Of a DNA stretch of 22,587 bases, positions 5,875-18,697 are shown piece by piece. Made by a program: the position numbers and the translations under genes. The DNA comes from a virus. Its lineage: Duplodnaviria > Heunggongvirae > Uroviricota > Caudoviricetes. Location: IMG/VR virus record IMGVR_UViG_2547132415_000022, positions 1-22,587 of that record. One strand, 5' to 3'. Within the stretch, counting starts at the first letter, position 1; each line of letters opens with the position of its first letter. Below the pieces are notes generated by a model, which did no database searches, was not told the origin of the DNA, and saw only the letters and a program-made list of their open reading frames with translations.

Positions 5875-6372
5875 TTAAGCCGGTACGCCGCCAGCGGTAC
5901 GCCAGACGGTGACCAGTTTTTCCAGTGAATGCTCACGCTGACCGTAACCGGCACCCGGCAGGGACGCCCAGATATTGCGACAGCGTGAAATGGCGCGCTC
6001 AATGCGTCCCGCCCGGATGTCATCCAGTGCACCGCGTTCGCGGATCAACTGAATGGCGAGCCTGTCCTGTGACAACGGACTGAAATCCGGCAGGGCAAGC
6101 TGTTTGCGGTAGTGCGGCCAGAACAGGTAAAGCTGCTGATAGCGACCGGAGGCCGTGGATTTTTCACCGCGACGGTTAAACACCTTCGCCGGTCGGCCAT
6201 GTGCGAACGGGTGGTCACTGTAGTCGGTGAAAATTTCCGGCTTCCCGTCCAGTCCGGTGACTATCACGTCATAGCCCCGGTTTTTCGTCAGCGGATGATT
6301 CGCCGTCCCTTCGGACACTGCCAGCATGTCGAGAAAGGCCGCGATATTCTGATGCGTGTTAATTACCGGCAT
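5875..6372 (-). CDS. K: Endolysin (lysozyme) K
   Basis: 165 aa ORF beginning MPVINTHQNIAAFLDMLAVSEGT, recognised as P2 gpK; directly downstream of holin Y. Confidence 0.9.
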   Translation of the reverse strand: MPVINTHQNIAAFLDMLAVSEGTANHPLTKNRGYDVIVTGLDGKPEIFTDYSDHPFAHGRPAKVFNRRGEKSTASGRYQQLYLFWPHYRKQLALPDFSPLSQDRLAIQLIRERGALDDIRAGRIERAISRCRNIWASLPGAGYGQREHSLEKLVTVWRTAGGVPA

Positions 6373-6653
6373 TACGGTTTCCCCCTGCCCTTAAAACGGC
6401 GCTGAATGGCAATCTCAATCACCTGATAACCGGCGATACCCAGCATGGAGCCGATGCCGCACACCGCAGGCAGTGACAGGTCAGGAAACTGCACCAGAAC
6501 AACACCGGCAACCATCGAGACAAAACCACCGAGCAACATGCGCCCGATAAACAGACGCGGGGTGATGGGTTCACCACCGGCAAGCACCTTGCCGACAACA
6601 ATCAGCACCCCAATCATGAAAAGCGACAGGACGCTTTTTTCTTCTGCTGTCAT
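6372..6653 (-). CDS. Y: Holin Y
   Basis: 93 aa ORF with transmembrane segments (LSLFMIGVLIVVGKVLAGG, MLLGGFVSMVAGVVLV), same length as P2 gpY as I recall it. Confidence 0.85.
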   Translation of the reverse strand: MTAEEKSVLSLFMIGVLIVVGKVLAGGEPITPRLFIGRMLLGGFVSMVAGVVLVQFPDLSLPAVCGIGSMLGIAGYQVIEIAIQRRFKGRGKP

Positions 6654-6656
6654 GCG

Positions 6657-6860
6657 TTACTCCCACAGATTGACAGTTTCAGCCACGGGCGCGGTCTGAA
6701 CGTCGGGCAGTTCGACGGCGGTGCCGTGCGGCAGCACCGCCCCCAGTTCAGCCAGTCACGGATTTGCGGCGAGCACGGTCTCAACCACGCCCTCAGTGCG
6801 CCCGTAATACCGGACACAGATGGCGTCGAGCGTGTCGCCCTGTAGCGCAAAGGTCTTCAT
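6657..6860 (-). CDS. X: Tail protein X (LysM-like)
   Basis: Found by hand, not in the ORF track. Minus-strand ATG at 6858-6860 overlaps the L stop (ATGA); translation begins MKTFALQ and ends NLWE with TAA at 6657-6659; 67 aa, as P2 gpX. Confidence 0.8.
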
Positions 6861-7369
6861 CAGATTTGACTCACGATGCAGCGCGGCTTGTCCTGGATGC
6901 GCGCCACTGCCCAGCGCATATCCCGCCACAGCTCATCAATGGTGCTGTCAATGCTGTCAGCCTTCTTGTCGCCTTTCGCACTGGCATCCACGCCGCGATA
7001 ACGCTCATAAAGCGACGCGGTCGCCATCGCACACACGGCGCGCTCGTAGTAAAAAACTTTGATGCTTTCACCGTCGATGTCGTCCGCCGGGACGTCCGCC
7101 AGACGCGTAAAACCGGCGGCAATTTTCTGTTCGCGGTACTCGTACAGCTCCGCATTCGTCTCCGCCATGCCTGACTTGATGGCCTCACGCAGACGGGCGG
7201 GGGCGACGGTCTGCTCAAGGCGCATACGTTCCCGGACGCGCTTCGGGTCGATATCGGGAAAAAAGAACGTGTTTTTAATCACCGGCTCGTCGCCTGCCGG
7301 TTGCGGGATGACCACCGTACCCTCACCGGATACAGGAGCCTCCTTTCGCGGAATAATCAGCGTCATCAT
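6860..7369 (-). CDS. L: Head completion / stabilisation protein L
   Basis: The ORF-track frame 6860..7429 contains an internal start MMTLIIPRKEAP at 7367-7369 with a strong GAGGTGG RBS, giving 169 aa as in P2 gpL; the upstream 20 codons are probably not translated. Confidence 0.8.
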   Translation of the reverse strand: MMTLIIPRKEAPVSGEGTVVIPQPAGDEPVIKNTFFFPDIDPKRVRERMRLEQTVAPARLREAIKSGMAETNAELYEYREQKIAAGFTRLADVPADDIDGESIKVFYYERAVCAMATASLYERYRGVDASAKGDKKADSIDSTIDELWRDMRWAVARIQDKPRCIVSQI

Positions 7370-10202: not shown

Positions 10203-10375
10203 TGTCAGGAGTCCTGAATAGTGATTAGAGGAGTCACATGTCGGCATCAGTTTCCCGACGATGCGCATCCTCCGCCATCAGTCCCGGATGGCTTATCACT
10301 GACACAACAGCACCTTAGCGAATCGCGGGGCGCGACTCAGTAGCCTTGCCGTGTATTCATCACGGCGAGGTATTC
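10203..10375. promoter_or_regulatory. Divergent late-promoter region between O (leftward) and P (rightward)
   Basis: 173 bp intergenic region between divergently transcribed late operons, where P2 has its Ogr-dependent late promoters. Contains the perfect palindrome TCAGGAGTCCTGA at 10205-10217. I found no perfect TGT-N12-ACA Ogr site by eye, so the exact promoter elements are not assigned. Confidence 0.5.
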
Positions 10376-12148
10376 ATGACCATCACCACAGACACCACTC
10401 TTTTACACGACCCGCGTCGTCAGGCGGCGCTGCTGTACTGGCAGGGATTTTCCGTGCCGCAGATTGCCGCCATGTTGCAGATGAAACGCCCGACGGTGCA
10501 GAGCTGGAAACAGCGCGACGGCTGGGACAGCGTTGCCCCCATCAGCCGTGTCGAAATGAGTCTGGAAGCGCGGCTGACCCAGCTCATCATCAAACCGCAG
10601 AAAACCGGCGGTGATTTCAAGGAAATTGACCTGCTGGGACGCCAGATTGAACGACTGGCACGGGTAAACCGCTACAGCCAGACCGGCAACGAGGCAGACC
10701 TTAATCCGAACGTCGCTAACCGCAACAAAGGCGGGCGGCGCAAACCGAAAAAGAATTTTTTCAGTGACGAGGCCATCGAAAAGCTGGAGCAGATTTTCTT
10801 TGAGCAGTCTTTCGACTATCAGTTGCACTGGTATCGTGCCGGGCTTGAGCACCGCATCCGCGATATCCTGAAATCCCGCCAGATTGGCGCGACGTTTTAT
10901 TTTTCCCGCGAGGCGCTGCTGCGCGCCCTGAAAACCGGCCATAACCAGATTTTTCTGTCGGCCAGTAAAACGCAGGCGTATGTGTTCCGTGAATACATCA
11001 TCGCCTTTGCCCGTCTGGTTGACGTTGACCTGACCGGTGACCCGATTGTCCTGGGCAATAACGGCGCAAAACTGATTTTTCTCGGCACCAACTCCAACAC
11101 CGCACAGAGCCATAACGGCGACCTGTACGTCGACGAGATTTTCTGGATCCCGAATTTTCAGGTACTGCGTAAGGTGGCATCAGGTATGGCCTCACAGAGT
11201 CACCTGCGCTCGACCTATTTCTCCACCCCGTCCACGCTGGCGCACGACGCCTACCCGTTCTGGTCGGGTGAACTGTTCAACCGGGGACGCGCCAGCGCCG
11301 CCGAACGTGTGGAAATCGACGTCAGTCATAACGCCCTTGCCGGTGGTCTTCTCTGTGCGGACGGCCAGTGGCGGCAGATTGTCACCATTGAGGACGCCCT
11401 GAAAGGCGGCTGCACATTGTTCGACATTGAGCAGCTCAAACGCGAAAACAGCGCCGACGATTTTAAAAACCTGTTCATGTGTGAATTTGTTGACGACAAG
11501 GCATCGGTGTTCCCGTTCGAGGAGCTGCAACGCTGCATGGTCGACACGCTGGAAGAATGGGAAGACTACGCGCCGTTTGCCGCCAATCCGTTCGGCTCCC
11601 GCCCGGTATGGATTGGTTACGACCCGTCACACCGTGGCGACAGCGCCGGATGCGTGGTGCTGGCACCGCCGGTGGTGCCCGGTGGCAAATTTAGAATACT
11701 TGAGCGTCACCAGTGGAAAGGCATGGACTTTGCCACCCAGGCGGAGTCCATCCGCAAACTCACCGAAAAATACAACGTCGAATACATCGGTATTGATGCC
11801 ACCGGCCTCGGTGTCGGCGTGTTCCAGCTCGTGCGCTCGTTCTATCCCGCCGCGCGCGATATCCGCTACACGCCGGAAATGAAAACCGCAATGGTGCTCA
11901 AGGCCAAAGACGTCATCCGCCGTGGCTGTCTGGAATATGACGTCAGCGCCACCGACATCACCAGCTCGTTCATGGCTATCCGCAAGACCATGACCAGCAG
12001 CGGACGCAGCGCCACCTATGAGGCCAGCCGCAGCGAGGAAGCCAGCCACGCCGACCTCGCCTGGGCAACCATGCACGCCCTGTTAAATGAGCCACTCACC
12101 GCCGGTATCAGCACTCCGCTGACATCCACCATTCTGGAGTTTTACTGA
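10376..12148 (+). CDS. P: Terminase large (ATPase) subunit P
   Basis: ORF-track frame starts at 10346; the probable start is the ATG at 10376 (MTITTDTTLLHDPRRQ) with a GAGGT RBS, giving 590 aa as in P2 gpP. Its stop overlaps the Q start (TGATG). Confidence 0.9.
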   Translation: MTITTDTTLLHDPRRQAALLYWQGFSVPQIAAMLQMKRPTVQSWKQRDGWDSVAPISRVEMSLEARLTQLIIKPQKTGGDFKEIDLLGRQIERLARVNRYSQTGNEADLNPNVANRNKGGRRKPKKNFFSDEAIEKLEQIFFEQSFDYQLHWYRAGLEHRIRDILKSRQIGATFYFSREALLRALKTGHNQIFLSASKTQAYVFREYIIAFARLVDVDLTGDPIVLGNNGAKLIFLGTNSNTAQSHNGDLYVDEIFWIPNFQVLRKVASGMASQSHLRSTYFSTPSTLAHDAYPFWSGELFNRGRASAAERVEIDVSHNALAGGLLCADGQWRQIVTIEDALKGGCTLFDIEQLKRENSADDFKNLFMCEFVDDKASVFPFEELQRCMVDTLEEWEDYAPFAANPFGSRPVWIGYDPSHRGDSAGCVVLAPPVVPGGKFRILERHQWKGMDFATQAESIRKLTEKYNVEYIGIDATGLGVGVFQLVRSFYPAARDIRYTPEMKTAMVLKAKDVIRRGCLEYDVSATDITSSFMAIRKTMTSSGRSATYEASRSEEASHADLAWATMHALLNEPLTAGISTPLTSTILEFY

Positions 12149-13182
12149 TGAGCAAGAAAATAGGGAAAACACCGCGACCTGCGGCAAAAACAATCACCGC
12201 CAGCGCCCCGAAAATGGAAGCATTCACCTTTGGTGAGCCGGTGCCGGTACTTGACCGCCGTGACATTCTGGATTACGTCGAGTGCATCAGTAACGGCAGA
12301 TGGTATGAGCCGCCGGTCAGCTTTACCGGTCTGGCAAAAAGCCTGCGTGCTGCCGTGCATCACAGCTCACCGATTTACGTCAAACGTAATATTCTGGCTT
12401 CAACGTTTATCCCGCACCCGTGGCTTTCCCAGCAGGATTTCAGCCGCTTTGTGCTGGATTTTCTGGTTTTCGGTAATGCGTTTCTGGAAAAGCGTTACAG
12501 CACCACCGGTAAGGTCATCAGACTGGAAACCTCACCGGCAAAATATACCCGCCGTGGCGTGGAGGAGGATGTTTACTGGTGGGTGCCGTCCTTCAACGAG
12601 CCGACAGCCTTCGCGCCCGGCTCCGTGTTTCACCTGCTGGAGCCGGATATCAATCAGGAGCTGTACGGCCTGCCGGAATATCTCAGCGCCCTTAACTCTG
12701 CCTGGCTGAATGAGTCGGCCACGCTGTTCCGCCGCAAGTATTACGAAAACGGCGCTCATGCCGGATACATCATGTATGTCACCGATGCCGTGCAGGATCG
12801 CAACGATATCGAAATGCTTCGCGAAAACATGGTCAAGTCGAAAGGCCGCAACAACTTTAAAAATCTGTTTCTTTATGCCCCGCAGGGGAAAGCCGACGGC
12901 ATTAAAATTATCCCGCTCAGTGAAGTGGCAACGAAGGACGATTTTTTTAATATCAAAAAAGCCAGCGCCGCTGACCTGCTGGACGCGCACCGCATCCCCT
13001 TTCAGTTGATGGGCGGCAAGCCGGAGAACGTCGGGTCGCTGGGTGATATTGAGAAAGTGGCAAAGGTCTTTGTCCGCAATGAGCTTATCCCGCTACAGGA
13101 CAGGATCCGCGAGATAAACGGCTGGCTCGGTCAGGAGGTCATCCGCTTTAAAAACTACTCACTGGACACTGACAACGGCTGA
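12148..13182 (+). CDS. Q: Portal protein Q
   Basis: 344 aa ORF, same length as P2 gpQ as I recall it; last gene before cos, as in P2. Confidence 0.9.
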   Translation: MSKKIGKTPRPAAKTITASAPKMEAFTFGEPVPVLDRRDILDYVECISNGRWYEPPVSFTGLAKSLRAAVHHSSPIYVKRNILASTFIPHPWLSQQDFSRFVLDFLVFGNAFLEKRYSTTGKVIRLETSPAKYTRRGVEEDVYWWVPSFNEPTAFAPGSVFHLLEPDINQELYGLPEYLSALNSAWLNESATLFRRKYYENGAHAGYIMYVTDAVQDRNDIEMLRENMVKSKGRNNFKNLFLYAPQGKADGIKIIPLSEVATKDDFFNIKKASAADLLDAHRIPFQLMGGKPENVGSLGDIEKVAKVFVRNELIPLQDRIREINGWLGQEVIRFKNYSLDTDNG

Positions 13183-13187
13183 ACATC

Positions 13188-13209
13188 GCCGCCTGCGGGC
13201 GGCTTTTTT
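13188..13209 (+). terminator. Rho-independent terminator downstream of Q
   Basis: GCCGCC-TGCG-GGCGGC stem-loop followed by TTTTTT, starting 6 nt after the Q stop codon. Confidence 0.6.
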
Positions 13210-13338
13210 ACACCCTCACATGCTCACCACCGCACAAAACCCCCCGCAGACACACCAACGCCCCGGCGCACAACCCAAACGCCGTCACGACGCGCTGAGA
13301 CGCTGAAAAAATAAAATCAGCACCACCGCCAGCGCGCA

Positions 13339-13357
13339 GTGCTTTCCCCGCCTCGCC
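13339..13357 (-). other. cos site, 19-nt cohesive-end sequence
   Basis: gtgctttccccgcctcgcc is the reverse complement of GGCGAGGCGGGGAAAGCAC, which I recall as the P2 cohesive end; the adjacent ~60 bp toward Q also match my recollection of the P2 left end in reverse complement. Confidence 0.7.
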
Positions 13358-13687
13358 CGCCCGCTTCATGGGGCGGTTTTGATGCAATACATGAGCATCG
13401 TAATGCCATATCGTGACAGGATTATAGAACATGAAGGTATACTAACTTACACATGCAAAAAAACGCACACTCAGGCATTCTCTTTGGAATACAATATGGT
13501 AAAAATATGATCATTTGAAGCTGCATATCCGTGCAGATTGAAATCAATGATGCTGCCCCTTCGTTAAGACAGCCAGGCCGCAATCTCTTGAGCTCAAGTG
13601 GACATCTAAGACAGAAAAACAATTTAAAGGCAAAGTTTTCGTAATGGTATCTTTGTCACAGCACACGCTAAAAAGGAACTAAACCTC

Positions 13688-14752
13688 ATGAGCACTCAGC
13701 AAGTCCTCAACATCCCTACAGCCGTATCGCAAGCGACCATCGAAAAATGGTTGAAAGGACTGGAACAGACAACGGAATTAGCCTTTTTTCGCCGTGTTGG
13801 CGGGCGGCATGGCTTCAATGTTACGAGCCGCTGGGCAAGTACATTGGATAACTTGAATAAAACTCTGAATGACCCATCGAAGCAAGGTACGCCTGCAAAC
13901 TTTTCAAATCTCCGTTTGATTACGTTAAAAATAATCACTAGCGTAAACCATTATTATTCAATTGATGGTATTAAATCAGGAACCATTAATTTAATACCAA
14001 ATATAATCAACTACCCTCACCTCGATAAAACATTTAGCTCAGTATTTCCAATAAAACTTGATGATAATACAGGACTTCCTTCGACTCCTGGGCATTTCAT
14101 TACTTCCATCGAAAAAATGGGGGATGGTATTGCTGTAATATATTCCTATATTATTTTAAGAAAAATCCAAGGAAGGAGTAAGCTACGTAGCAATCAATAT
14201 CCAGAGCAGTACTTCAACACTGTTTTCATCCCTAATGATTTAAGCCGTATAGAATATCGGGTTGATAAATCACTAGGTAAAAGAGCGTCTGAAAAAGCGA
14301 TGGCAGATTTGCGCGCAAAATTTAATGAATTACTCGTGGAACTTAATATTAAGTTAGCTGTTGAAACTATAAATTTCTACAAAGCAATTTCCAATATTTA
14401 CCTTGACAAACAATATGGAAGACTTGTTCAGGTTAATTTCCTTGATCCAAATGGAGATGAGGATGCTGTTCTTCGTTGCAGAACAGACCCCAATTATGAT
14501 GCCCGTTATCGCGAGGTTGTATCTAAAACTCAGAACGGAACACCTCGCTCATTGACCCTTGAAGTTTCTGGCGTTGCAGTGCGATTAGATAGTAAAGTTG
14601 CAAACGAAACAATTTCAAATGAAATTGGTTTTGAACCCAGCAAAACTGATTGGTCTACAAACAAATTTTGTGGGGATTTTTATTTTACACAAACAGCAGA
14701 TCATCAGGTGCATTATGGGGTGATAAATGATTTACTCACAAGAGCGAAATAA
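13688..14752 (+). CDS. Hypothetical protein, 354 aa; first gene of an AT-rich cargo cassette; no recognisable catalytic motif
   Basis: ATG at 13688 with an AGGAA RBS 9 nt upstream; strongly AT-rich (roughly mid-30s percent GC by eye) against a >50 percent GC backbone; not a P2 gene; no Walker A or other motif found on inspection. Confidence 0.7.
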   Translation: MSTQQVLNIPTAVSQATIEKWLKGLEQTTELAFFRRVGGRHGFNVTSRWASTLDNLNKTLNDPSKQGTPANFSNLRLITLKIITSVNHYYSIDGIKSGTINLIPNIINYPHLDKTFSSVFPIKLDDNTGLPSTPGHFITSIEKMGDGIAVIYSYIILRKIQGRSKLRSNQYPEQYFNTVFIPNDLSRIEYRVDKSLGKRASEKAMADLRAKFNELLVELNIKLAVETINFYKAISNIYLDKQYGRLVQVNFLDPNGDEDAVLRCRTDPNYDARYREVVSKTQNGTPRSLTLEVSGVAVRLDSKVANETISNEIGFEPSKTDWSTNKFCGDFYFTQTADHQVHYGVINDLLTRAK

Positions 14753-15161
14753 AAAAATGCGCTCATTAGTGTATAAACAAAGAGTACTCCTGGAGAATGC
14801 CGGAAGCTCTTCTGTTTTCATAAATAATGATTCTCACATATATTATACAAATTTACTAGAATATGTAGAGGGTGATCTTGATCGTAATATTTATACAATC
14901 CCAGTATTACGAAAAGCCATAAAAACTGACAATTATGAACATTTGCTACGAGTTGTTCAATTTTTTAGTAGCAATACCTCCTGTTTATTTAACGTTAAAT
15001 ATTGCTACGAACTAGAAAACATGGAGTTTGAGGACATACAAGCTGATGAATATACCAACTATATATTAAACGGAGTTGAACCTGTAACTGCCAATGGTTC
15101 TGAAATTGAAGACTTCAATCCAAAATATCTTTCATTTTATTGCATAATAAACCTGGATTGA
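14727..15161 (+). CDS. Hypothetical small acidic protein, 144 aa (134 aa if it starts at the ATG at 14757); second cargo gene
   Basis: Overlaps the 3' end of the first cargo gene by 26 nt, suggesting translational coupling; same AT-rich composition; no recognisable motif. Confidence 0.6.
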   Translation: MIYSQERNKKMRSLVYKQRVLLENAGSSSVFINNDSHIYYTNLLEYVEGDLDRNIYTIPVLRKAIKTDNYEHLLRVVQFFSSNTSCLFNVKYCYELENMEFEDIQADEYTNYILNGVEPVTANGSEIEDFNPKYLSFYCIINLD

Positions 15162-15166
15162 CTGTC

Positions 15167-16027
15167 ATGAACAAACAACAAATCACATGTGAGTTAGGCA
15201 AAAGGGTTCATTTTGAAGATGAAGCGAGTTTTATTGAAACATTATACTCGGATATAGAAGTCATAATAAAACTAATGGAGCAATCTAGTGACAAGTATTA
15301 TTGTGATGATGAAGATAAACTAAGCCATACAATTGTAGCCTCTCTTGTACACCTAGGTTACGATGCAACCGAACAAACAAAAAAAAATGGAAGTGTGGAC
15401 ATAACCGTTCGTCCGAAAAATGGAGGATATACATGGATTGCTGAAGCAAAAATCGGATACGGGAACCAAAAAATATTCGAGGGGCTACTTCAGTTGCTTA
15501 CTCGCTATGTTAAAAGAGATAATCATGCAGGCATGGTTATCTATTATCAAAAATCAAAGTCATCTTATCATTTCAAACAATGGCTGAAATACATATACAA
15601 CCATGAGTGGAAGGATTATTGTACAAAGAAAGGGTCATTAAAAAAAGCGACTCCGCTACTTTCTCATTTAAAAAGTACGGTTTGTCCGAAAGTCAAACAA
15701 GGCTGTTGTTATGCTGACATTGATGTCATCCAACCTTCGACTGATGGTCTAAAACTTCGCTGCTTCTATATTGACGTGCATCATGACCCAATTGACAGTA
15801 GTGGTTTAAAGAATAAGTCAATCGCCTTTGGTCAAGCCCAAAATAGAATTAGAGATTTATATCACTTATGGAAGACAGGACAGTTCGACGGCAGTATGAT
15901 AGATGAATTATTTGAAGAAATAAAAATATATCATAGCAATGAACTTGACGAAGAATATGAAGATGAAGATGAAGATGAAGATGAAGATGAAGATGAAGAT
16001 GAAGATTCGAATATAAACTCAAAATGA
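15167..16027 (+). CDS. Hypothetical protein with a PD-(D/E)xK nuclease-like motif and a poly-acidic C-terminal tail; third cargo gene (ORF track starts it at a TTG at 15140)
   Basis: ATG at 15167 lies 5 nt after the stop of cargo gene 2. Protein contains GSVDITVRPKNGGYTWIAEAKIG, a D-x15-E-x-K pattern in a strand-like context resembling the restriction-endonuclease fold active site. C-terminus is EEYEDEDEDEDEDEDEDEDSNINSK. Confidence 0.65.
   Translation: MNKQQITCELGKRVHFEDEASFIETLYSDIEVIIKLMEQSSDKYYCDDEDKLSHTIVASLVHLGYDATEQTKKNGSVDITVRPKNGGYTWIAEAKIGYGNQKIFEGLLQLLTRYVKRDNHAGMVIYYQKSKSSYHFKQWLKYIYNHEWKDYCTKKGSLKKATPLLSHLKSTVCPKVKQGCCYADIDVIQPSTDGLKLRCFYIDVHHDPIDSSGLKNKSIAFGQAQNRIRDLYHLWKTGQFDGSMIDELFEEIKIYHSNELDEEYEDEDEDEDEDEDEDEDSNINSK
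15959..16006 (+). repeat. Perfect hexanucleotide microsatellite (GAAGAT)x8 inside cargo gene 3, encoding a poly-Glu-Asp tail
   Basis: Eight uninterrupted GAAGAT copies read directly from the sequence; in-frame. Confidence 0.95.
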
Positions 16028-16040
16028 ACACCAAGAATCA

Positions 16041-16074
16041 CCCCATTAAGTTTAGACATCCTAACTTGATGGGG
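16041..16074 (+). terminator. Hairpin downstream of cargo gene 3, possible terminator between the convergent cargo operon and gene A
   Basis: CCCCATTAAGTT / AACTTGATGGGG, a 12-bp stem with one G-U mismatch and a 10-nt loop, starting 14 nt after the stop; no strong U-tract follows, so terminator function is uncertain. Confidence 0.3.
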
Positions 16075-16161
16075 AATTGACTTTTAAGTCTGTAACCCTA
16101 GCCATCAAAAATAGATTCATTTTAAATAAAAATATATCCGTTACGCCCAAAAAAAATTGAA

Positions 16162-18432
16162 TTAATTAGGAAAAACACTCCCAGTTGGAATTTTTTTAAA
16201 TTTATATTTCCTCCCATCGAAACATACTGTCGCACCGCGTGCTAATACCTGTGGTTCCCATTGATTCGGCGTAATACCCTCCTGAGCCAACTCGAATCTT
16301 ATACGTGGCGTCTGTTCCCGTTCAGCTTTTGTCATTCGTCCTGAGGGCGCTATCTGATAAGGTTTTAATGGCTCACAGCTCTTTTGCTGGCGATTTGGTC
16401 GTGGCGCATCGTGTTTTAGTGCGCATCTGAGCACCGTCACGACTTCAGGGTCATCCCAGCCGATAACCCCGCGCTCAATCAGATTCAACACCGCTGCTGC
16501 TTGCTCAGAAGGTATGGATGTCATAGCAGGATCGCCACCGCTAGTTAGCTTTCCACAGTTATTGACAGGACTCCGAGGCGCGGCGATGCCGCTTTTTAAA
16601 GTCAAAGGCTCAACGACCGGAACTTTCGGCACAATGCGCCAGTCCGTCGTTCTGGTGATATGAATATGACGCGCGCCGAGATGCGGCGCGTAAATGCCGA
16701 CCACCCTCTCGACCTCTTCCTCGTACTCGTTAACGTCATCCGACGGGCTACGGGCGACTCTGACAGTCTGACAATCGCGCGGGACATTTGCCCCACCCTG
16801 CGCGCTGATATACAACGCAAAATCACCACTGTCTGCGGCGGCGCGTGCAGCCTCGACGCGCTCGTCAAACTCATCAGCAATGCTGACGCCGCGCGGCAAT
16901 TTGCGTAGTTCACGGTAAGCCCCCATTGTCGGCAGACCAACCGTTTTAAATTGCGGGATGCGCCACGTTGACGCCCATGCGGTAACAGCCGCAGCAGTGT
17001 CTTTCAGCGGCCTGCCGGTATCGTTATCGAGCTGACCATCCAGTGCATAGCCGTCGATGTTTTTTGAGATGTATTTCGCGATATACCCCGCAGCACCGCC
17101 CCGGTTAAGGTGTTTTGCCTGAAAACGGTTTCGCGCGGCTCCTCTTTCATCGCCATCCTCTTTGAGCGCATAGCGACGCATGATTTCGATAATCTGGTTA
17201 CGCTGGCGCGGATTACAAAAAAGCATCATATGCCAGTGCGGCGTTCCGTCGTGGTGTGGCTCGACGACACGCAAACCGTAGACCTGTAAATCATTATCCT
17301 TGAATGCCGTGCGCATCAGGCTCCAGATACGGCAGAGATAACGCTGCGCATCCTTTGGATTAAATGCCTCATCGTTCCAGCCGTGATTTAGCTGGACGGT
17401 TTTACTTTCGCCTTTTCTGACCTGACGTGTCGGGTGATACTTTGACGGCGCGGTCAGCGTGATAAACATCCCCACATCACCCTCTGCTGCGGCGTAACGC
17501 TCAATACCGGCAATGGTGTTCATCAGCTCCATCCGGCGAATTTCAGGATTAGAAATACTGCCCATCACCTTACTGATAAGGTCGATGCGCTCGCCGGTTT
17601 CCCTGTTTTCGAGATCACACGATTTAAGAAATTCCAGATTTGCCTGGCGGCGTGCACGCACATCACGAATGGCATGTTTACTGGCATAAGGAGAACGGTC
17701 TTTATTGACCTCCCCGACAGCAATCAGTAACGCCTCATGCCAGCGCATACGCTGGCCTTTAAGCTGATGGGTCCACCACTCATCGTTAAACAGACGGGCA
17801 ATGGCAGAATATGCCTGCCTCGTGGTCATCTGCCCTTTACGGTATTTTTTCCAGTAGAGCGGGGAAATATTGAAAGCACGTGCAGCACCAGCAACATGAC
17901 CATAGAGGTGAGCCTGCGCCTCATCCGTAAACAGCGATTCTTTTTCGCCATGCGCATCCCCCCAGGCATCGCAGAGTTCCTCATACATCATGAAAAGCTG
18001 CGATGAGATACGGGCGGCAAACTTTTTCAGCTCCTTGTCATTCATCCCCGGCAGACGCGCATAATGGTCACGCTCTGCCAGAAACAGCAACGACGCGTCG
18101 GTGTTCATTTTATGGCGCTGATTCACACGCTCAATGCGCGGCCATAAACGACGCTGAAAAGTGGATGTGAGAAAATAAAACCCGTGCACCGGGCTTTTAT
18201 TGCGCCGGATGTAGTCATAGCGTGACGTAAACAGCGAGCGCAAAAAGTAAGGCAGGCGGTTAATCGTGGATAAAACACCTTGCACCTGACGCATCTCGTC
18301 ACGTGTAAGGGGTCTTTCGCGCCCGACAGCCTCGCGTGGCGCGTTCCATGCATAAGCACCGGTAAACGCCTTACCGGTGCCTGCGGCAAATGCTGACGGA
18401 GGGACAAAACGCCCGGAGGCTTTAACGGCCAT
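16162..18432 (-). CDS. A: Replication initiation endonuclease A (rolling-circle initiator)
   Basis: ORF-track frame 16162..18474 (TTG start); probable start is the ATG at 18430-18432 (MAVKASGRFVPPSAFAAGTGK), as I recall for P2 gpA. Contains the HUH-like PHWHMMLF and the paired-tyrosine YIAKYISK motifs expected of this nicking enzyme. Confidence 0.9.
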   Translation of the reverse strand: MAVKASGRFVPPSAFAAGTGKAFTGAYAWNAPREAVGRERPLTRDEMRQVQGVLSTINRLPYFLRSLFTSRYDYIRRNKSPVHGFYFLTSTFQRRLWPRIERVNQRHKMNTDASLLFLAERDHYARLPGMNDKELKKFAARISSQLFMMYEELCDAWGDAHGEKESLFTDEAQAHLYGHVAGAARAFNISPLYWKKYRKGQMTTRQAYSAIARLFNDEWWTHQLKGQRMRWHEALLIAVGEVNKDRSPYASKHAIRDVRARRQANLEFLKSCDLENRETGERIDLISKVMGSISNPEIRRMELMNTIAGIERYAAAEGDVGMFITLTAPSKYHPTRQVRKGESKTVQLNHGWNDEAFNPKDAQRYLCRIWSLMRTAFKDNDLQVYGLRVVEPHHDGTPHWHMMLFCNPRQRNQIIEIMRRYALKEDGDERGAARNRFQAKHLNRGGAAGYIAKYISKNIDGYALDGQLDNDTGRPLKDTAAAVTAWASTWRIPQFKTVGLPTMGAYRELRKLPRGVSIADEFDERVEAARAAADSGDFALYISAQGGANVPRDCQTVRVARSPSDDVNEYEEEVERVVGIYAPHLGARHIHITRTTDWRIVPKVPVVEPLTLKSGIAAPRSPVNNCGKLTSGGDPAMTSIPSEQAAAVLNLIERGVIGWDDPEVVTVLRCALKHDAPRPNRQQKSCEPLKPYQIAPSGRMTKAEREQTPRIRFELAQEGITPNQWEPQVLARGATVCFDGRKYKFKKIPTGSVFPN

Positions 18433-18697
18433 ATGAGCCAAAAGCCTCTGAACAACGCTTGCTGAGTTGCTCAACCTGCACGTTTAAATCAGCAAAAGAC
18501 TTTGCGCTTCCGGTCAGAATATCGTGATGCATCAGGCCGGAAACGAGCTGGCTTAATTTCGGGTAATAACCAACCACCGACAGCCATTCCTGACCGGCGT
18601 TTTTACCGCTTTCCGCTCTCTTTTTCTCGTGGAGAATAAACTGAAAGCTGTCACTGGTAACGACATAACGTTCGCCAATTTCAATACGAATACTCAT
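18422..18697 (-). CDS. Small early-operon protein, P2 orf83-like
   Basis: 91 aa ORF immediately upstream of A, overlapping its start by 11 nt; occupies the orf83 position of the P2 early operon. Confidence 0.6.
   Translation of the reverse strand: MSIRIEIGERYVVTSDSFQFILHEKKRAESGKNAGQEWLSVVGYYPKLSQLVSGLMHHDILTGSAKSFADLNVQVEQLSKRCSEAFGSYGR

Follow-up and report, generated by a model that had tools for sequence, protein, structure and literature searches.

The P2-type cos site and its flanks

The window analyzed here, the whole stretch of 22,587 nucleotides of IMG/VR virus record IMGVR_UViG_2547132415_000022 (positions 1 to 22,587), contains a P2-like (Peduovirus) prophage in the reverse of the standard P2 map orientation. 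This study concerns the interval that runs from the end of the portal gene Q, across the cohesive-end site cos, to the first gene of an accessory cassette. The cos site in the prophage map follows gene Q and its terminator tQ and precedes the variable region and the replication gene A, while genes C and int are placed further right in the window (Table 1). Three cargo open reading frames (ORF1 to ORF3; 13688-16027, + strand) lie between cos and gene A, in the slot occupied by old, tin and orf91 in P2, and read away from cos in the same orientation as old and tin. This arrangement agrees with a first-pass annotation of the letters alone, which had located the cassette at the P2 right-end position. 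The cargo, P and Q are all on one strand, with no gene intervening.

Table 1. Features in and around the cos-to-cassette interval (window coordinates; offset counted from the first base of the 19-mer)
Feature	Position	Strand	Description and basis
Terminase gene P	10346-12148		Pfam assignment
Portal gene Q	12148-13182		Pfam assignment
tQ, intrinsic terminator of the late P-Q operon	13188-13209	+	stem 13188-13193/13198-13203, GCCGCC-TGCG-GGCGGC, T6 13204-13209; terminator scan
Q-cos spacer	13210-13331	+	P2 backbone, C-rich/G-poor (44% C, 16% G); ~91% identical across P2-like phages
GCGCGCA	13332-13338		Q side of the 19-mer; sole sequence there common to P2-like phages and P4 satellites
P2 cohesive-end sequence, 19 nt	13339-13357		GTGCTTTCCCCGCCTCGCC, reverse complement of GGCGAGGCGGGGAAAGCAC
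Proximal cos core	13357-13386	+	GC hairpin 13357-13362/13371-13376, T4 13377-13380, GATGCA
Proximal ATGCA word	13382-13386		offset +43
Spacer between proximal and distal words	13387-13452		length conserved, sequence variable
Distal array, three words 10 bp apart	13453-13477		ATGCA 13453-13457, ACGCA 13463-13467, AGGCA 13473-13477
Predicted sigma-70 promoter	13484-13511	+	-35 TTGGAA 13484-13489, 16-bp spacer, -10 TATGAT 13506-13511
Overlapping extended -10		+	TG 13497-13498, g, TAAAAA 13500-13505
Long 5' untranslated leader	13516-13670	+	~170 nt from predicted start to ORF1
Ribosome-binding site and ORF1 start codon	13673-13690	+	AAGGAA 13673-13678, start codon 13688
ORF1	13688-14752	+	RdgC-like fold; fold comparison
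ORF2	14727-15161	+	144 aa
ORF3	15167-16027	+	BamHI-like PD-(D/E)xK nuclease, acidic tail; fold comparison
Replication gene A	16162-18474	-	Pfam assignment

The cohesive-end sequence occurs once in the window, where no chance match would be expected even with three mismatches, and is identical at 19/19 positions to the reverse-complemented P2 cosL (1-19) and cosR (33575-33593). The match to deposited linear genomes that start at cos stops exactly at window 13357. The 19-nt cohesive end named in the first-pass annotation was thus confirmed, and its second claim, that the terminator after Q is intact, also held. We found a GC-rich hairpin with a T-run directly past the Q stop codon that is homologous to P2 tQ and in fact sequence-identical to it (P2 160-181, annotated as 'tQ; putative rho-independent terminator for P operon'). 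A matching hairpin with a T-run was present in 84/120 related loci. The spacer between tQ and cos is kept in P2-like phages and absent from P4, and alignment to P2 indicated that the window is 12 bp shorter just downstream of tQ. Within this spacer, the + strand of 13210-13300 consists of 48% C, 16.5% G and 5.5% T, and its excess of C over G, 0.40, is the strongest in the window (mean 0.02, sd 0.08). This tract looks like a Rho-utilisation tract backing up tQ, as judged from base composition.

On the cargo side of the 19-mer, the hairpin, T-run and ATGCA word up to 13386 were invariant or nearly so as compared with P2 (one or two substitutions) and the cdt-carrying phage fiAA91-ss. Past 13386, the window, P2 and fiAA91-ss were mutually unrelated in the alignment, and E. 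coli P2-like relatives with other cargos diverge from the window at 13387-13401. The alignment to the P2 right end proposed earlier for placing the breakpoint therefore put the end of P2 homology at about 13386. Together with the Q-side sequence, the conserved core amounts to ~55 bp (13332-13386), which is invariant or nearly so in P2, fiAA91-ss and P4; a conserved 55-bp cos core is attributed to Ziermann and Calendar (1990) in PMC5694545.

These boundaries bear on the proposal that an AT-rich segment begins directly after cos. This proved incorrect, as 13358-13386 is phage backbone with 62% GC and position-locked elements, described below, continue to about 13480. The related description of the ~330 bp between cos and the first cargo ATG as AT-rich and non-coding was right in its composition (40.9% GC, as compared with 53.6% for Q) and in its coding status, since RefSeq annotates no gene there in two E. 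coli genomes carrying the cassette; it did not hold in that ~120 bp of the interval (13358-13480) are cos-associated. Only ~13481-13687 (207 bp) is free of position-locked cos elements.

We also noted a 74-codon ORF on the - strand (13208-13432) that extends across cos and appears as "hypothetical protein" in several deposited phage records. It is probably spurious, since the variable spacer contributes its 5' part and cleavage at cos would split it in virion DNA, and annotation pipelines should not call it.

Position-locked TGCA words beyond the conserved core

Clusters of (A/G)TGCA, hereafter RTGCA, were first noticed in cassette copies from different hosts, in P2 and in fiAA91-ss. We examined their positions in all IMG/VR loci recovered by an exact scan for the 19-mer, together with reference loci; the 121 instances gave 108 unique cargo-side sequences, which fell into 73 groups with unrelated DNA beyond +145. 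RTGCA was found at +43 in 103/108 unique right ends and showed further peaks near +115, +125 and +135 (83, 70 and 66 of 108, respectively, in the main bins), and it occurred almost nowhere else within 450 bp. In 56/67 representatives the first distal word lay 71-73 bp from the proximal one, and neighbouring distal words were spaced 10 bp apart in 57/99 cases. Mean pairwise identity among the 73 right ends with unrelated cargo was 0.81 from +19 to +55, 0.34 in the spacer and 0.26-0.28 beyond +142. The phased-word criterion (+115, +125, +135) was derived in this analysis and is not an established one.

In the window itself, GCA is retained at all three phased positions. A position weight matrix of the array, built from the other family members with the window excluded, gave the window array a score of 16.7 bits, as compared with a background maximum of 10.8 bits among 20,000 random sites in the window. 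This score, the recurrence of the words at matching positions across 73 groups of unrelated cargo and in both P4 satellites and phage 186, and the behavior of phage pairs that have a common spacer and array and diverge at +130 to +170, all argue against a narrow cos consisting of the 19-mer with at most its hairpin, in which 13358-13687 would be entirely a cargo-owned leader and the TGCA words incidental. That view has in its favor that homology to P2 and other E. coli P2-like prophages stops at 13386-13401 and that, in E. coli, the spacer and array sequence of the window is found only with this cassette; we nevertheless regard it as improbable. The first-pass annotation had likewise equated cos with the 19-mer, which we do not follow, since elements at fixed offsets continue beyond it with any cargo, in P4 satellites as in P2-like phages.

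The satellites are informative in this respect. Thirty loci without an upstream portal gene were P4-type satellites, 18 of them with an explicit P4 marker, and they retain words at the four positions in 30/30, 30/30, 25/30 and 28/30 cases. P4 (NC_001609) and P4-like satellites have the same GCGCGC, 19-mer, hairpin, AATGCAGTTGCA, fixed-length spacer and three ATGCA words, but the cargo of the satellites is on the other side of cos. In P4 the variable gop-beta-cII cargo lies on the opposite side of the 19-mer, and what follows the array is the 3' end of psu, with no cargo promoter. According to PMC9122126, P4 has essentially only cos in common with P2, because it borrows the P2 terminase. Similarly, the right end of phage 186 has the core, a spacer palindrome and the triple ATGCA array, but its orf97 reads towards cos and ends at terminator t95b, and there is no outward promoter; in 186-type cos variants the words are GTGCA. 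Since the same word architecture is seen whatever the cargo, and is kept in P4 and 186 where no outward gene exists, we read 13332-13480 as an extended cos.

Comparable arrangements are found at greater distance. Phage phiCTX (L141, NC_003278, 1-481) has a different cohesive end, with TTCTGCR words at offsets comparable to those of the P2 TGCA words, and its record annotates repeats R3-R6 and two integration host factor (IHF) sites around cos. The phiCTX sequence suggests an early origin, within the family, for an arrangement of core and spaced repeats. The lambda cos consists of the nicking site cosN and of cosB, which has R sites and an IHF site. We use lambda as a working analogy only, in that spaced repeats on one side of its nicking site position the terminase, and there is no sequence similarity between lambda and P2-type cos.

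The right ends also differ in how spacer, array and cargo are combined. Most right ends that carry the same cargo also have the same spacer. In 18 pairs, however, spacer and array are common to both members and divergence sets in further out, mostly from +130 to +170, whereas in 51 pairs the cargo-side DNA is common and the spacers differ. Because both kinds of mixed pairs exist, the 55-bp core and the distal array both behave as exchange points. Cassette relatives in other genera share DNA with the window from the array onwards. We tentatively raise the possibility, although we think it rather doubtful, that the array (+115 to +140) forms a second half, not described until now, of the packaging signal of P2 and P4 and also serves as the inner boundary of the hotspot, a second recombination anchor for cargo swaps and a reused promoter flank. 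If the array is indeed a terminase site, this would explain why cargo never lies closer to cos in P2-like phages, and why the cargo of P4 is on the other side of cos. For surveys of P2 hotspots, the end of the distal array (+140) is usable as the inner boundary of the cargo instead of the 19-mer.

A predicted cassette promoter and its leader

The first-pass annotation had also suggested that the cos-to-ATG interval holds a promoter active in the lysogen, as with P2 old, and had assigned no hexamers to it with confidence. The only good + strand match to a sigma-70 promoter between cos and the ATG is at 13484-13511 (+145 to +172), with a predicted transcript start at about 13511-13520 (+172 to +181). 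The parallel with P2 was apt, as P2 cargo likewise reads away from cos; its old-tin mRNA starts, annotated at +167/+169, fit TTGAAT, 17 bp and TAAAAA. The -35 of P2 old overlaps the third word, and the promoter of the window lies ~12 bp further out.

The conservation of this region was assessed with a cassette copy from Enterobacter (L144), a decayed prophage fragment that lacks gene A and retains just 55 codons of Q. Identity between the window and L144 was 45% in the spacer, which amounts to unrelated sequence, 92% in the array, 95% in the promoter block (13478-13515), 70% in the rest of the leader, 90% from the ribosome-binding site to the ATG and 78-84% in the coding regions, with 63% at third codon positions of ORF1. 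The array and promoter taken as one block (13453-13515) are 94% identical, with 4 differences in 64 columns (P about 1e-8 at the third-position rate). On account of this conserved block, a promoter at 13484-13511 with a start at ~13511-13520 and a leader of ~170 nt is the best-supported reading of these sequences. The invariant non-coding blocks in the four closest cassette copies are the array, CTTT, ATGrTAAArA, which contains the extended -10, and the ribosome-binding site; the extended -10 (TGnTAAArA) is invariant in these four copies (E. coli, Serratia, Yersinia), and AAAAGGA is invariant in all aligned cassette copies. An A7 tract within the array, ~45-60 bp upstream of the predicted start, may act as an upstream part of the cargo promoter. 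We considered whether the backbone of every P2-like phage supplies a TGnTAAAAA promoter at one constant position and rejected this, since only ~7/78 have it and the best sites are scattered; promoters therefore appear to travel with cargos.

Taken together, the comparisons point to the interval being the junction of a P2-like packaging site, that is, an extended cos at ~13332-13480, and an accessory cassette with its own promoter; we put the probability of this reading at roughly 70%. The late P-Q operon would end at tQ. The cos proper would comprise GCGCGCA, the 19-mer nicked by terminase, the hairpin and T-run, the proximal word, the fixed spacer and three words on the same helix face. By analogy with lambda cosB next to cosN, the words beside the nicking site may be recognition sites of the P2 terminase; candidate readers would be the small subunit gpM and the N-terminal helix-turn-helix that gpP, the product of terminase gene P, carries. 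Directly past the third word, a sigma-70 promoter belonging to the cassette would give a transcript starting at ~13511-13520 that leads through AAGGAA to ORF1 at 13688. Such a promoter would permit expression in the lysogen independently of the late transcription blocked at tQ, as with P2 old.

The right end of P2 (AF063097) is the closest precedent for this arrangement. Its 19-mer and tQ are identical to those of the window, the core is nearly identical and the distal words are at the same offsets; its first cargo gene reads away from cos, from a promoter that abuts the third word. P2 differs in carrying old, tin and orf91 rather than an unrelated three-gene cassette and in having a leader of ~45 nt as compared with ~170 nt; the differences on the side of the window are the two degenerate distal words, the 12-bp shortfall after tQ and the last ~15 codons of gene A. 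Our finding is thus a known architecture in which one boundary had been misjudged and the boundaries are now refined, and what may be new is solely the inclusion of the distal, phased words in the P2/P4 cos. Searches of the accessible literature, which did not cover the 1990 cos-mapping paper, found no description of a distal array in P2 or P4.

Rather than packaging, the TGCA words could mainly serve transcription, for instance as the operator of a regulator encoded by phage or host, or as an UP-like element for hotspot promoters. The overlap of the P2 old -35 with the third word, the abutment of the window promoter on the array with the A7 tract ~45-60 bp upstream of the start, and the conservation of array and promoter as one block even in the decayed remnant L144 are consistent with this. 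However, P4 satellites, which according to PMC9122126 share essentially only cos with P2, keep the array facing the 3' end of psu; the array of 186 lies beyond terminator t95b, which ends the inward transcript; and promoter-like sites are not position-locked across cargos. We thus consider a mainly transcriptional role unlikely.

Read-through from the late P-Q operon across cos into a cassette lacking its own promoter is very improbable. The cassette shares its strand with P and Q and no gene separates it from them, as such read-through would need, but the intact tQ, the C-rich/G-poor tract and the second hairpin with a T-run lie in between. Late genes of P2 are silent in lysogens, which also counts against it, and cassette copies outside intact prophages retain the promoter block.

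Several points weigh against the combination of an extended cos and a cassette promoter that we prefer. Two of the three distal words of the window are degenerate (ACGCA and AGGCA), and the array, at 16.7 bits, ranks low among the 107 family members (23rd percentile, lower quarter). The accessible literature cites just the 55-bp conserved cos core. The hexamer score of the promoter was equalled in 133/1000 dinucleotide shuffles of the 207-bp leader (13%). Since this is not significant, we did not rest the promoter call on the hexamers alone; the promoter prediction proposed at the outset thus returned 13484-13511 as the best site at a level no better than chance, and the claim of a promoter stands on the L144 footprint and the invariant extended -10. 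The two overlapping -10 candidates are indistinguishable, and a recent recombination tract, instead of selection, could account for the close match of the block to L144. Finally, the array is 92% conserved in L144, a decayed remnant without gene A, where selection for packaging should be gone; this hints at a promoter-linked role of the array or simply at recent decay.

The leader itself, unusually long at ~170 nt, contains a 6-bp hairpin (13521-13536), a 12-bp palindrome (CTTGAGCTCAAG, 13587-13598), a 12-codon upstream ORF (13644-13682) and a TAAGACAG direct repeat. With such features it could be a functional RNA, such as a retron-like non-coding RNA, a riboswitch or an antitoxin small RNA, or hold a regulatory upstream ORF or operator. 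An Rfam scan of 12900-16400 at E up to 1 returned two irrelevant weak hits only, and folding of the 5' untranslated region was no better than that of shuffles (z = +0.6), with no conserved structure. Furthermore, the hairpin, the palindrome, the first copy of the TAAGACAG repeat and the upstream ORF are all disrupted in L144, and ~105 nt of the leader (roughly 13567-13671), present in E. coli and Enterobacter copies, are absent from Serratia and Yersinia copies. We accordingly rejected these four elements, which are located within or beside the 105-nt segment, as functional on account of their lack of conservation in L144 and their absence from the Serratia and Yersinia copies, and we regard a leader acting as RNA or regulator as exceedingly improbable. 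The leader was also considered as a repeated or mobile element and rejected as such, as it was found only in the two E. coli genomes with the cassette and had 0 matches in 50,697 phage records. For a test of the cassette under its native promoter, the insert should be cloned from about 13478, since starting further upstream brings the packaging signal along.

The cargo cassette and its wider distribution

For ORF1 and ORF3, searches of Pfam, NCBIfam and PDB sequences yielded no usable hit, and only fold comparison was informative (Table 1). Dodd and Egan (1996) is reportedly an earlier reference for the cos-proximal hotspot of P2. A survey of 18,150 gpQ-cos-gpA loci found 1,650 gene arrangements and described the locus as a defence hotspot (Rousset 2022, PMC9122126). 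All three cargo proteins of the window appear verbatim in Table S5B of that paper as system 145, 'DUF5939 | DpnII-MboI', with 14 occurrences. System 145 is absent from Table S2, which lists the evaluated systems, and therefore was apparently never tested there; neither the cos-cargo boundary nor the promoters are dissected in the accessible part of the same paper.

The cassette was found in 2/5,426 complete E. coli genomes and in at least nine P2-like prophages (E. coli, Serratia, Yersinia, Klebsiella, Rahnella, Enterobacter), as well as in islands and prophage remnants, with contexts gathered gene by gene. It lies in a Citrobacter integrase island beside an EcoRII restriction-modification system (L012, 5001-7249), in a Cronobacter chromosome near a type VI secretion system Hcp gene, where the third gene was not called (L007, 5001-6474), and at a Providencia locus (L135, 4001-6292). 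The Enterobacter remnant discussed above carries it (L144, 3022-5337) beside an insertion sequence transposase and an AAA_15/21 gene, with the cos core and array retained.

At the far end of the cassette, homology to P2 resumes ~45 bp inside the 3' end of gene A. The last ~15 codons of gene A (window 16162-16206) are outside the P2-homologous region, so that the variable module extends into the 3' end of A. An imperfect 12-bp hairpin (about 16042-16075) follows the cassette, and no clear T-run terminator was found between the converging cassette and gene A. One of the E. coli copies, in strain ZH177 (L004, NZ_CM125652), has a baseplate V gene fused to a terminase fragment (1495-2049) and a truncated gene A adjoining the repressor (6062-7259), which are internal deletions in the prophage copy. 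The cos-cassette segment of ZH177 is 100% identical to the window; because its prophage copy is internally deleted, the window derives from a different, more complete copy.
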